Positions 28,499 to 31,729 of a stretch of DNA of 64,000 nucleotides are shown here, piece after piece. The stretch comes from an uncultured Chloroflexia bacterium (GTDB lineage: Bacteria > Chloroflexota > Anaerolineae > Caldilineales > Caldilineaceae). Position 1 is the first letter of the stretch, and each line of letters opens with the position of its first letter. The stretch covers positions 111,153 to 175,152 of the forward strand of contig CAVXYK010000029.1 of assembly GCA_963765875.1 (NCBI GenBank). Direction: 5' to 3'. Position numbers and translations under genes: made by a program. The notes beneath the pieces were generated by a model that worked only from the letters and a program-made list of their open reading frames with translations, was not told the origin of the DNA and made no database searches.

Positions 28499-31400
28499 TC
28501 AATCAAAGAATATGGCTTCCCCGCCACGACTTTCCGGGAGGACAAGCCCGGTTTGGGGATGGTAATAGTGCTTCATCCAATCTTCGTCTAACACATGGCA
28601 TACATCAGCGATTGTCTGAATGACACCCAGACTCTGCAAACTCTGAAATTCTCGTTCGTAAATGTTGACGGTGTACACCTGCAACTTGCGCAAGGTGCTA
28701 AACGGATAGAGCGTGTGCCGCAATTCCCGCAGCCGAATTTTCGCTTCTTTATCATACGGAATCACCACCGACACCGTATCGTCATCAATCAACTTGAAGT
28801 TTTCGGCCGCTGTTTTGAAATCGAAATCCAAGCTTCGGGAACCTTTGTCGAGAAAACTTAGAATTCTCCTGGCATCGAAACTGGCTTTATCATGCAGGGT
28901 GTAAAGACGGTCGTAGTAGGCCTCAATTGCCGCAATCGTCGTTGGATCCGTACTGAAATCACGCAGGGTACTCTTGGCCACAGCACCCGTCTGTGCGATG
29001 AAGATCGGCGTGCGCTTGATGAAGTCGGTCTTGGGGTCGAACACGAGCATTTCCCCGATCGATTGCTTACCTTCCCGATTGATTCGCCCTGCCGCCTGGA
29101 TGATTGAGTCCAATCCCGCCAGCGCACGATAGCCGACCGGGAAATCCACGTCGATCCCGGCTTCCATAACCTGCGTCGAGACGACGCGGCAGACGTCCCC
29201 GTCTTCAAGCCGTTGGCGGATTTCCGTCAGGATTACCTTGCGGTGTACCGGACACATCAAGGTTGAGAGGTGAAATCGCCCTTCCCCGACCAGTCCATCA
29301 AACAGCCCCTTGGCATGGCGACGGGTGTTGACAATACACAAAACCTGGCGCTGCGCTTCAAGCTTCTCCAGTAACTCTTGATCGGGCAGAGTTCCCAGTT
29401 CCTTCACCTGTACACGGCGATAGAAATCGAACAACTGTTGGGGATTGGGAGCCAGTTCCGTAAACTGCGTACTGTCTGGGAAGAATCGCTGCAAAGATGG
29501 TTGCGTGGCTGTGCAAAAGACTGTGCTGACTCCGTAATTATGCACCAATTCCTGAACAGCCGATAGGCTGGGTGTCATGTATTCTCGCGGCAGCGTTTGA
29601 GCCTCATCGAAAATGATCACGCTCTTGGCGATGTTGTGCAGTTTGCGCGCCCGTGATTTCTTGCTGGCAAACAGGGACTCGAAGAACTGCACATTGGTCG
29701 TAACCACGATAGGGATGTCCCAGTTCTCGGCAGCCAATCTCAGCTTCTCATGTACGTCGTTGGTCTCATCGTCTGATGTATGTCGCAGCCCCTCCCAATC
29801 AAAATTGGAATGGTGCTCCAAGATGTTTTCCTCTCCCAGTATGCCCAATGACTCCCTAAACACCGCAGCGTTTTGTTCAATGATGCTGGTAAAGGGAATG
29901 ACATAGATGACTCGCTTCAACCCGTGAGCAATGGCGTGATTGAGTGCAAAAGCCATTGAGGCCAGTGTCTTGCCGCCACCAGTCGGCACGGTCAAGGTGA
30001 AAAAGCCCGGATCTTGGTTGGCTTTAGCCCGGCAGGCGTGCAGGGTTTCGGTACGCTTGCGGTTGATGGGCGTTTGCGGATCCTCGAAACGCTGCAAATA
30101 TCGGTTGAATTGCTCAGCCAATGCCTCGATACTGGCATACTGACCGCGGGGCTTTTCGACCTCTTGCATATACCGTTCAGTGTCCAGCCAGTCGGCATCC
30201 ACCAAGGTAGAGAACAACATGCGCGTCAAGAAGGATATTGAAAAGCCTGGATATTCACGATTGACTTTTATGTGCAGGGGCTGGAATTGTAGTTGGTTGG
30301 CATCAAGTTCCGTGGCATAGGCGCTGTAGTCTTCCAGTTGTTTCTTCTCCCGCCGCGCCAGAAGGGTTCCATCCGCTTCCGTATCACCAAGGCTGCCATA
30401 GTCGGGCAGACCAGAATGGTGCCCAGCGATGCAGTAGGACAGTAACTCGGCATAGGTGTTATCGGGCTTTGCGGGGAATAGGCTGACTATTTCCCGTGCG
30501 CCGGCAGTAGCATGATCGACTCGCTTGTTCGAGCCGCGCAACCGATCCTGAAAAGCCTGCGAGTATTTGCCAATGTCGTGCAAAATCCCAGCTACTCGTG
30601 CCAGTTCGGACACACCGGCATCTCGCCCCAGCTCAAAAGCCAGATCGCCAGTTTGGAATAAGTGGTCTCTCAGCAACTGCCACTCTGATTCATCGATGCC
30701 GGGCTTCGAGTGGGCATAGTATCGCTCGTCGAAGGTTTTGAACGCTGAAACAGCGTACAACTCAGCCAGCTGTCGTGCTTCTCGAATCAGCGACTCCCGC
30801 AATTTTACCGGCTCCAACACTTCGACTTTGCTGCCCCACCCGCGTATCCACGGCAACATCTCCTGCGGTTCGGCTACCCAAGCCCGCCAGAGCAGACTGC
30901 CGTCCGCTTCCAACACGGTCTGCTGCGACTGATGCCAGCGCGTCTCCTCCACCCGCTTGGCCACGCGTGGATGGAACTTGAGCACCACCTCCACCGGCTC
31001 GGCCTCCGTGTACCAGATGCCCCAGGCGTTAGCGAGCTTGGCACGCGGGTCAAAATCATCAGGAATCTCATAGCTGTCTCGGAGAATCTCGGCCGAGCGC
31101 AGCCGCTCCACCTTGAAAGTGCGCACAGCGCTTGGCGGCTCACGCCAGCCGATGACGTGTGCAGTCTGACCGACGGCATACGGTTCGATGAAGTAGGGCG
31201 AAAAGGTGTACTCAAAGACCCGCCCGTCTTCCATCTGGTGACTCACCTTCACCTTGCGCCCCACGGACCACGCCTCGGTCAGCTTCTGCAGCACGTCCAG
31301 GTAGACCGGATCACGATAGGCCGCAGCCTCGTCCATCATTTCGGCAGAACGCAGCAGATGTCGGCTCACGTTGTTGTCCAGACGCCGCAAGGCCATGCCC

Positions 31401-31729
31401 AGCTTGCGTAGCGACGACGCAGCATGGGGGTTCTGTTTGTCCGTACGCGTTGCCAGCAGACGGGTCGCTAAATGGATGGCCATGATTTCATGTAGGCTGA
31501 AGGACGCTTTGGTCAGGTCGGCCGAGCGGTCCAACTTGAGCTTATTGCCGTCTAGATCATCTTCGTAGATGCTGGGCGGCAGATGATCCTTGTCCAGATA
31601 GCGACCAATGGTAGATCGGTTCACATTCAGGCGTCGGGCGATCTCGGCCCGAGTCATGCCCTCCGGGTGCGCCCAGAGCAGTTCCTCGATCTGCAACAGG
31701 CGTTGTGATTTCTCTTGTGCCCTGTTCAT
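28499..31729 (-). CDS. cas3: Cas3 HD nuclease/SF2 helicase with N-terminal HTH-WYL-WCX regulator-like extension (about 330 aa)
   Basis: Single 1076-codon ORF. N-terminus [21 protein letters not shown] (HTH), [40 protein letters not shown]...RTFKVERL (WYL-like). Then the HD domain ([26 protein letters not shown]), Walker A [8 protein letters not shown], DEAQ and [10 protein letters not shown]. Confidence 0.9.
   Translation of the reverse strand: [1076 protein letters not shown]

Follow-up and report, generated by a model that had tools for sequence, protein, structure and literature searches.

What a WYL-family transcription-factor module is doing at the N-terminus of Cas3, the nuclease-helicase that belongs to type I CRISPR-Cas systems, is the question raised by one gene in a 64,000-nucleotide stretch of DNA from an uncultured Chloroflexia bacterium (assembly GCA_963765875.1, contig CAVXYK010000029.1, positions 111,153 to 175,152 of the forward strand), which we call the window and whose positions are counted from its first letter. 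The gene, WYL-cas3, encodes a single polypeptide in which, as judged by profile and motif comparisons, the N-terminal ~325 residues are a complete transcription-factor module resembling DriD of Caulobacter crescentus, and the remainder is a complete type I-C Cas3 (Cas3c). The best explanation of the whole, and one that we consider probable, is that the WYL module serves as a single-stranded DNA (ssDNA)-responsive autoregulator of the cas operon, tethered to Cas3.

The fusion itself is read directly from the DNA as an uninterrupted open reading frame (ORF) of 1076 codons, from ATG to stop, just as the first-pass annotation (a description made from the letters and their translations alone) had reported, and the peptide strings cited there were all located, among them residues 25-45 and 156-195, RTFKVERL at residues 203-210, and FDEAQ.

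28499..31729, minus strand: WYL-Cas3c fusion ORF, 1076 aa plus stop, ATG start, no interruption
30722..30754, minus strand: variable tether leading from WCX to Cas3, residues 326-336, about 11 variable alignment columns, no ATG or GTG

The DNA of the fusion junction contains neither a stop nor an ATG or GTG, the sole in-frame start-type codon in its vicinity being a TTG at L324. A protein in NCBI/ENA (P0001) is sequence-identical to the encoded WYL-Cas3c, whose residues 2-1074 align with positions 1-1008 of 1009 of the PADLOC Cas3c model PDLC01766 (1380 bits, E = 0), and the window gene aligns with that of its closest relative (locus L001) at 77.9% nt identity with zero gaps across 3231 nt. 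Both halves are retained in 40 homologues at 58-83% identity (the 40-member alignment), a pattern of sequence conservation that shows purifying selection acting on each of them. The neighbouring 10 kb are full of 1-2-nt indels, and two-gene relatives exist in which a single base change would join the frames, both of which speak for an artefact in which an indel at the junction has merged two genuine genes; against this stand the L001 alignment, gap-free over its entire length, the same continuous ORF in more than 120 independent assemblies, the absence of any remnant stop/start at the junction, and the existence of a curated end-to-end profile (PDLC01766), so that an artefact of this kind is highly improbable. 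The junction is genuine, and the integrity of the ORF is not in doubt. In a full-length AlphaFold2 (AF2) model, with a predicted local distance difference test score (pLDDT) of 78.1 and a predicted template-modelling score of 0.65, both halves fold and the tether is of low confidence (pLDDT < 50 at residues 328-333); the model provides no usable information on the packing between the module and Cas3.

The regulatory half is made up of four parts, the first of which is a winged helix-turn-helix (wHTH):

31532..31723, minus strand: wHTH, residues 3-66, whose recognition helix reads NRSTIGRYL and includes the family-invariant R38
31262..31495, minus strand: three-helix-bundle linker, residues 79-156, aligning to the three-helix bundle of DriD
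31073..31258, minus strand: WYL beta-barrel, residues 158-219, five strands in the AF2 model
30764..31000, minus strand: WCX domain, residues 244-322, matching Pfam WCX

Profile searches with the N-terminal region place Pfam WYL (PF13280, residues 145-215, 25.9 bits against a cutoff of 21.8) and Pfam WCX (PF25583, residues 244-322, 63.3 bits against 23.9, covering profile positions 1-76 of 76) above their cutoffs and HTH_11 (residues 10-46, 22.4 against 25) slightly below. The AF2 model of residues 1-336 (mean pLDDT 74.6) contains a wHTH, a helical bundle, a barrel and a WCX domain, with the wHTH formed by helices 3-20, 27-34 and 38-44 followed by a two-strand wing, and the linker by helices 79-95, 101-134 and 141-156 at low pLDDT. 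The eponymous WYL motif is degenerate, apparently THV where DriD has NYL, in low-confidence columns of the hhalign alignment. Residues of the module that are invariant in the 40-member alignment comprise R38, W154, P178, Y179, P183, K206, R209, W236, G237 and W239, of which P178, Y179, P183, K206 and R209 belong to the WYL barrel, and W236, G237 and W239 to the WYL-WCX junction.

Among characterised WYL regulators, DriD is the closest relative both by sequence and by fold. With phmmer, residues 5-323 align end to end with DriD (8tp8/9pfq, E 7e-15), PafC being a weak match; the family profile, when aligned to DriD with hhalign, reaches a probability of 98.65% across 296 columns that include the wHTH; and a Foldseek search of the AF2 module against the PDB returns DriD at the top (E 1e-17, ~338 aligned columns), followed by PafBC (E ~1e-12), BrxR/CapW (E ~1e-7) and WYL1 (E 1e-5), with a template-modelling score of 0.72-0.73, target-normalised, between the WCX domain and the DriD C-domain. 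The likeness to PafBC, BrxR and CapW proposed in the first-pass annotation therefore stands as far as the WYL-regulator family is concerned, but within that family the nearest characterised protein is DriD, then PafBC, with BrxR and CapW far off. When the DNA and ssDNA contacts of DriD (PMC10853764) are mapped onto the module, the DNA-backbone contact Arg36 corresponds to the invariant R38, and the ssDNA contacts Arg204, Arg207 and Tyr240 correspond to R203, K206 and W239, the latter two invariant; the base-reading Arg37 and Glu40 are replaced by Ser39 and Gly42, as would be expected because the candidate operator described below differs from that of DriD. On the combined evidence of alignment and model, the module is best described as a complete DriD-type transcription factor, and as more than a bare WYL domain.

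The remainder of the polypeptide is divided as follows:

30179..30673, minus strand: Cas3 HD nuclease domain, residues 353-517, TIGR01596 cas3_HD
29042..30001, minus strand: Cas3 superfamily 2 (SF2) helicase core, residues 577-896, TIGR01587 cas3_core, Walker A GGGKT
28502..29041, minus strand: Cas3c C-terminal region, residues 897-1076, PDLC01766 and PDLC01765, folded in the model

The NCBIfam models TIGR01596 cas3_HD (104.7 bits against a cutoff of 43.45) and TIGR01587 cas3_core (112.6 against 102.45) are both matched, Pfam recognises HD/Cas3_HD, DEAD and Cas3-like_C_2, and the PADLOC scores assign the subtype (Cas3c at 1380 and 743 bits, against 398 for the best Cas3b and 101 for Cas3e). 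The HD motifs LHDIGK and AGHHSG are present, with H384, D385, H437 and H438 family-invariant, as are the helicase motifs GGGKT, FDEAQ and QAAGRINR, and every HD and helicase motif is invariant in the 40-member alignment. Compared with solved structures, the whole Cas3 body (residues 332-1076) finds the type I-C Cas3 chains 8g9u_P and 8zns_A at E 1e-110, over residues 337-997. By these profiles and motifs the body is identified as a complete Cas3c with intact catalytic motifs, and the role to be expected from its family membership is that of an HD nuclease and SF2 helicase recruited by Cascade. Pfam, NCBIfam and PADLOC, the matches to solved structures, and Foldseek on the model agree on the architecture that the first-pass annotation had put forward, namely HTH-WYL-WCX followed by a complete type I-C Cas3.

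How widespread this architecture is can be read from the databases. A protein database search returned 1345 relatives of WYL-Cas3c, and the best 120 of them, which come from many independent assemblies, carry the same N-terminal extension, almost all being full length (coverage 97-100%, identity 57-83%, 1064-1101 aa); the carriers named among these 120 are Chloroflexota, Caldilineaceae, Anaerolineae, Roseiflexus and the spirochaete Gracilinema caldarium. When each species was represented by a single genome, at least 591 relatives of Cas3c came to light, and among the best 80 of these the module is fused in frame in ~20 loci, nearly all from Chloroflexota, with single cases in Ignavibacteriales, a gammaproteobacterial metagenome-assembled genome and Spirochaetales. 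Split loci also occur (L025, from the isolate Ornatilinea apprima P3M-1, and L028, L030, L035, L039 and L047), in which the module is a gene of its own of 331-351 aa with a stop, followed by a cas3 with its own ATG, the stop and start being mostly overlapping or adjacent (TAATG, ATGA, TAGCGATG). For Roseiflexus RS-1, the supplement of Makarova et al. 2014 (PMC4012209) lists both an HTH_DeoR+WYL protein of 332 aa (gi 148654817) and a Cas3 (gi 148654816); their consecutive gi numbers suggest that the two genes lie side by side.

The module is also found well beyond Cas3c. An exhaustive search with the module alone yielded 6897 relatives, of which 298 score E <= 1e-30, and the best 150 module representatives comprise 102 of stand-alone size, 31 on a Cas3e-type body, seven on Cas3c and 10 that either are truncated or have some other fusion partner. 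WYL-Cas3e stands at the head of complete type I-E operons (cse1, cse2, cas7e, cas5e, cas6e, cas1, cas2). On a tree computed from the Cas3c bodies by neighbour joining, loci with a fused, a split and no module are interleaved and the module subtype is incongruent with the Cas3 phylogeny; Cas3c-fused, Cas3e-fused and stand-alone modules are likewise interleaved in the module tree (both trees are without support values), and the closest module to that of the window (P0121, 79% identical) sits on a Cas3e-type body. From these interleaved trees and the P0121 module, the module is best read as a mobile cassette that has been repeatedly fused to, split from and swapped among cas3 genes. The fusion presumably arose when the stop codon that separated a wyl gene from an overlapping cas3 gene was lost, an event that appears to be both recurrent and reversible. 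Three further proteins (P0125, 894 aa; P0156, 676 aa; P0235, 1508 aa) join the module to an HD-only or domain-less C-terminus that has no PADLOC Cas3 match, and the module may accordingly be fused to effectors beyond Cas3c and Cas3e.

If the module is a transcription factor, where would it bind? The DNA upstream of WYL-cas3 contains the following elements:

32093..32111, no strand assigned: P1 candidate operator, perfect palindrome TGTTGCAGTAGGTGCAACA, sole match in the 64-kb window, with 0.02 expected
32078..32083, minus strand: P1 -10-like hexamer CATGCT, 9 nt past the palindrome
31818..32027, minus strand: small wHTH gene, 69 aa, paralogue of the module's DNA-binding domain, located by tblastn with the L001 gene; Pfam HTH_24
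31796..31802, minus strand: P2 candidate half-site TGTTGCA, its right-hand counterpart degenerate, 73 nt upstream of the cas3 ATG
31769..31774, minus strand: P2 -10-like hexamer TAAGTT, beginning 28 nt after the first base of the half-site

The TGTTGCA motif is common to the upstream regions of module-bearing loci. Its 19-bp palindromic form TGTTGCA-N5-TGCAACA, searched for with at most two mismatches within 450 nt upstream, is found at 18 of 23 fused and three of four split I-C loci (21/27) versus none of 41 Cas3-only loci, with a Fisher p of 1.6e-12 that is nominal because the loci are phylogenetically related; two further fused loci have it slightly beyond 450 nt. The palindrome is present in eight loci with no detectable small wHTH gene, and it recurs in the type I-E loci L085-L088, whose operons are headed by WYL-Cas3e. 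The fused loci L010, L012 and L044 (Spirochaetales) are without it; L010 and L012 have another upstream motif in common, CTAATTTTCCAACTnCCGA, suggesting that their module, a diverged subtype, may use a diverged operator.

The position of the palindrome is as regular as its occurrence. In every palindrome-bearing I-C locus and in L085-L088, exactly 9 nt separate it from a -10-like hexamer, which in the I-C loci has A at position 2 throughout and mostly reads TAnnnT (such as TAAAGT, TACAGT, TAGATT, TAAAAT, TACAAT), three hexamers, including CATGCT of the window, deviating from the strict form; an xAxxxT lies at offset 28 from 25 of the 33 forward TGTTGCA sites (binomial p = 7e-24). If the hexamer is taken as -12 to -7, the palindrome spans -40 to -22, where there is no -35 hexamer. 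Two candidate promoters can be distinguished. P1 has the full palindrome and precedes the small wHTH gene or, in loci without that gene, stands directly before the module. P2 stands directly before WYL-cas3 and consists of the left half-site, a right half that is degenerate, and a -10 of the extended kind (TGn); its half-site recurs at the same offset in 12 further loci with a small wHTH gene. A consensus promoter scanner called neither P1 nor P2, because they have no -35 element. At DriD promoters too, the palindromic target lies across the place of an absent -35, its distance to the -10 being fixed (PMC13004042). PafBC promoters, of the 'sigma adaptation' type, combine a -10 with a specific element at -23 to -28 and have no -35 (PMC8635444); the right half-site of the palindrome falls at the position of that element. 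The predicted geometry of P1 and P2 is that of DriD- and PafBC-activated promoters.

Two other observations concern the same upstream DNA. The scanner did match a good sigma-70-like promoter, TTGACG-17-TATACT, at 32548..32520 (minus strand), as well as a divergent promoter on the plus strand; the former lies ~410 nt upstream of the P1 palindrome and is followed by ~400 nt without a convincing ORF or Rfam match. In addition, within 32031-32092 (minus strand) the small wHTH gene's Shine-Dalgarno region has its complement in the 9-nt spacer and -10 region (CACCTCCATG ... CATGGAGGTG), and similar complementarity, with the inner pair GTGGA...TCCAC, is seen in most loci. The upstream arm would stay untranscribed if P1 starts after its -10, and we do not claim a conserved leader hairpin that sequesters the Shine-Dalgarno sequence, RNAalifold giving -0.56 kcal/mol and only scattered compensatory pairs.

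The small wHTH gene is related to the module itself: residues 5-66 of its product align with module residues 7-67 in a profile-profile comparison (probability 97.5%, E 5.5e-12), and the recognition helices are alike (RSxVTR in the small protein, RSTIGR in the module). Fifteen further I-C loci, as well as I-E loci, have the gene conserved at the same place, immediately upstream of the fused cas3, with homologues of 66-72 aa in L001, L002, L005-L008, L013, L014, L020, L024, L026, L029, L034 and L036 and in the I-E loci L085-L088. Its product could compete for, or share, the boxes of the module, or it may act as a partner or a separate regulator.

Downstream of WYL-cas3, the operon continues on the minus strand:

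27813..28475, minus strand: cas5c, intact, 93% aa identity to the Cas5 of L001 over 220/220 residues, 0 frameshifts
25951..27816, minus strand: cas8c (Csd1), 10 frameshifts, 78% aa identity once frame-corrected, no in-frame stop
23866..25455, plus strand: insertion sequence (IS) element in cas7, 1590 bp, 20-nt terminal inverted repeats, intact 453-aa DDE transposase
21430..23448, minus strand: cas4, cas1 and cas2 (3, 5 and 2 frameshifts), by tblastn and frameshift-aware alignment
19877..21256, minus strand: CRISPR array of 21 repeats GTCGCCCCCCTCACGGGGGGCGTGGATTGAAAC (minus-strand reading), many with 1-nt length variants

The order of the operon is small wHTH gene, WYL-cas3, cas5c, cas8c, cas7, cas4, cas1, cas2 and CRISPR array, and it agrees with the canonical I-C order of the intact relatives (cas3-cas5-cas8c(Csd1)-cas7-cas4-cas1-cas2); the CRISPR repeat, which terminates in ATTGAAAC, is of I-C type. 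All six cas genes downstream of WYL-cas3 were recovered in order by tblastn, five of the six being frame-broken. A frameshift-aware protein-to-DNA alignment against intact relatives placed 10 frameshifts in cas8c, three each in cas7 and cas4, five in cas1 and two in cas2, which amounts to 23 in 4.8 kb versus none in the 3.9 kb of cas3 and cas5, an outcome with a chance of 7e-9 at the density of the neighbours, and one that upholds the earlier remark that this long ORF is free of frameshifts amid broken genes. The two halves of cas7 (25447-25919 and 23448-23861) are separated by the IS element, inserted between about residues 150 and 151, with inverted repeats at 23866-23885 and 25436-25455 that end in CTAG and a transposase matching Pfam DDE_Tnp_1 and DUF772.

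How, then, would a transcription factor joined to Cas3 act? Comparative genomics suggests that the module would bind TGTTGCA-N5-TGCAACA as a dimer, that the palindrome would occupy -40 to -22 of P1, a promoter with a -10 but no -35, that a half-site would take the same position in P2, directly before WYL-cas3, and that WYL-Cas3 would thereby control the transcription of its own operon. The switch would be ssDNA in the WYL-WCX pocket, by analogy with the relatives DriD, PafBC and CapW, all of which sense ssDNA (CapW: PMC11662680), and the sources of this ssDNA may be phage replication, DNA damage, or Cas3 itself. The first-pass annotation had raised the thought that an ssDNA or ligand sensor might govern cas autoregulation, and this is what the comparative evidence favours. 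As for the sign of the control, we lean modestly towards activation over repression, because the geometry matches the -35-less promoters of DriD and PafBC and the module is more closely akin to those two proteins. Candidate benefits of the covalent tether include a 1:1 dosage, a dimeric Cas3, the parking of Cas3 at its own promoter, and the sensing of ssDNA in cis. The covalent linkage is not essential, as the split versions show, and the recurrent fusions to two Cas3 families suggest that it is sometimes advantageous.

The closest competitor keeps the operator-binding autoregulator and reverses its sign, making the module a repressor of the CapW/BrxR type whose dimer over the -35/spacer region would block RNA polymerase until ssDNA releases it. 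This alternative is possible, though it is the lesser prospect: CapW and BrxR, the characterised defence-associated wHTH-WYL-WCX proteins, do repress, ssDNA frees CapW from DNA (PMC11662680), the candidate site overlaps the core promoter, the TGnTAnnnT extended -10 elements of P2 could act without a -35, and several loci have extra TGTTGCA copies past the -10 and over the cas3 ribosome-binding site; but DriD (E 1e-17) and PafBC (~1e-12), which are activators, resemble the module in sequence and fold far more than BrxR and CapW (~1e-7) do, and the rigid 9-nt spacing across distant lineages and two CRISPR subtypes, in the absence of a -35, has the look of activator dependence, whereas a repressor site needs no fixed phasing. 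A more distant proposal holds that the module is no longer a transcription factor and that WYL is an accessory ssDNA-binding or loading part that modulates the Cas3 helicase-nuclease, for which the WYL domain of the Thermotoga elfii PIF1 helicase offers a precedent (bioRxiv 10.1101/163188), with ssDNA being the substrate of Cas3 itself, the tether being merely ~10 residues long, and the repeated fusion to two Cas3 families indicating that physical linkage is sometimes favoured. We regard it as unlikely to be the sole role: the palindrome accompanies the module in fused loci too, and in the split loci a Cas3c of the same clade works with the module as a separate protein, although an accessory role and a transcription-factor role are compatible and not mutually exclusive. 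Several points weigh against an ssDNA-responsive autoregulator all the same. The kinship among loci makes the operator p-values nominal, the consensus scanner passed over P1 and P2, the -10 assignments and promoter positions are ones that we infer from the sequence, and the P1 -10 of the window, CATGCT, is weak. A site over -40 to -22 is equally compatible with simple repression, the extended -10 of P2 (TGn) might work without an activator, and the small wHTH paralogue, where present, could bind the operator alone or in addition. The ssDNA contacts Tyr192, Arg189 and Arg288 of DriD correspond to His191, Gln188 and Gln289 and are not kept, the equivalents of Tyr192 and Arg189 lying in a low-confidence part of the alignment, and one WYL regulator has been reported to bind cyclic di-GMP (PMC11880434).

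The damage to the neighbouring genes bears on the same question, since the Cascade and adaptation genes appear broken here and the system may be non-working in this genome. From this a further reading can be drawn, in which an intact WYL-Cas3 (with Cas5) has been kept by selection for a task that does not need Cascade, such as that of a transcription factor or nuclease activated by ssDNA, while the interference and adaptation genes decayed. The contrast between zero and 23 frameshifts, the bona fide IS with terminal inverted repeats that interrupts cas7, and the intact state of the selfish or addictive genes within the zone (the IS transposase and a Phd/PIN pair), as real decay would leave them, are in its favour. 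The zone itself is an indel-rich tract of ~10.7 kb (17100-27816) with sharp edges and 1-2-nt frame-breaking indels, which also takes in a membrane-protein gene unrelated to cas (17150-18814) that needs at least three frame changes to be read. After frame correction the broken cas genes contain no premature stops and have identities of 72-79%, near the 83% of cas3; the events comprise 15 insertions and eight deletions, about half of the 21 CRISPR repeats have 1-nt length variants, and the unrelated membrane-protein gene is broken as well, all pointing to sequence error, whereas the placing of most events outside homopolymers, together with the intact transposase and Phd/PIN pair, points to real decay. 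Homopolymer-type sequencing error was rejected as a simple cause of the frameshifts, most events not being in homopolymer runs. The zone resembles a sharp-edged 10.7-kb tract of poor consensus at least as much as a decayed one, and a Cascade-independent role is improbable on this evidence.

Returning to the ssDNA-responsive autoregulator, its parts can be joined into a bolder version, a sensor, regulator and effector in one polypeptide, which we put forward only tentatively and consider rather unlikely in its full form. At rest, dimeric WYL-Cas3 would be held at or near its own promoters; upon recruitment of Cas3 by Cascade, the ssDNA released by target shredding would load the WYL-WCX pocket in cis; and the pair of wHTH domains would then be switched onto the boxes, raising cas transcription, including that of the adaptation genes, only during interference, while the small wHTH paralogue would compete for the boxes and set a threshold. 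If this were true, the repeated independent fusion to Cas3c and Cas3e would reflect selection for cis-coupling and not neutral stop loss.

Compared with known systems, the WYL-Cas3 architecture is already on record. The rarity implied by the first-pass annotation does not hold, for the fusion is abundant in databases, is represented end to end by PDLC01766, and was noted in one sentence by Makarova, Anantharaman, Grishin, Koonin and Aravind in 2014 (PMC4012209); the architecture of those fusions is identical to that of the window ORF, which is a member of the group, although the fused architecture string was not recovered from the 2014 supplements. That mention gives no operator, promoter, partner gene or experiment for WYL-Cas3, and our literature searches found, among the papers that were searchable, no experimental study of the fusion, other papers citing WYL in reference lists or legends, so that the earlier statement that no characterised fusion was known still stands. 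The searches also found no description of the candidate operator, of the two DriD/PafBC-like promoters, of the wHTH paralogue, or of the I-C/I-E modularity.

The nearest individual systems each share part of this arrangement. DriD (8tp8, 7tzv, 9pfq) is an ssDNA-activated activator with the same four-part architecture, aligned end to end, but it is a free 327-aa protein with a DNA-damage regulon, is 21-24% identical to the module, and has the operator CGNC-N7-GNCG as opposed to the candidate TGTTGCA-N5-TGCAACA. PafBC of mycobacteria (6sj9, 9fnd; Foldseek E 7e-13) is an ssDNA-triggered WYL activator as well, but a heterodimer or tandem fusion of two WYL proteins in which one HTH contacts DNA, with no CRISPR link. 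CapW (of CBASS) and BrxR (of BREX) resemble the module in being regulators encoded at the head of the defence operon that they control, CapW sensing ssDNA; they differ in being free-standing repressors with 12-16% identity to the module (E ~1e-7). The solved I-C Cas3 proteins (8g9u chain P, 771 aa; 8zns chain A, 854 aa) have the same HD and SF2 body, but their residues 2-5 align with residue ~337 of the window protein and they are without the 335-residue regulatory extension. In Thermotoga elfii PIF1, the WYL domain is joined to the helicase as an accessory ssDNA-binding module (bioRxiv 10.1101/163188), without a wHTH, three-helix bundle or WCX, on a superfamily 1 helicase, and with no operator and no CRISPR link. 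WYL1 of type VI-D (6oaw), which is reported to bind RNA and boost Cas13d, and sll7009 of the Synechocystis I-D system are WYL proteins that modulate CRISPR-Cas, but they are separate polypeptides, and the fold match to WYL1 is weak (E 1e-5).

A few features of the window lie outside the operon. Toxin-antitoxin-like pairs flank the CRISPR-cas locus, DUF433/DUF5615 upstream (32780-33535, plus strand) and Phd/PIN past the array (19235-19856, plus strand). At 35377-35680 the heptanucleotide TGCTGCT is repeated 43 times in tandem (98% identity), with a period that is not a multiple of three; the repeat sits inside a 739-aa ORF (33545..35764, minus strand) with the domains 23S_rRNA_IVP and DUF362, and could be a contingency locus or an assembly oddity. 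At 41777-42194 a 66-nt tandem repeat of 6.3 copies (95% identity) has a hairpin in each unit (GAGACGCAA..TTGCGTCTC); it was ruled out as a CRISPR array, its 'spacers' being identical. An Rfam scan of the whole window found no known RNA family.

Type I CRISPR-Cas induction upon infection is poorly understood outside a few model organisms, and Cas3 is the component whose dose most endangers the host. The present analysis adds a predicted control site and a DriD/PafBC-like promoter geometry to what had been a one-line annotation, turning it into a testable regulatory model. What emerges is a large natural family, mostly from Chloroflexota and spanning types I-C and I-E, in which a DriD-like candidate ssDNA sensor is built into Cas3 itself, and in which the candidate operator, the two candidate promoters and the truncated paralogue provide a testable model for damage- or infection-induced cas expression, with possible feedback through ssDNA.

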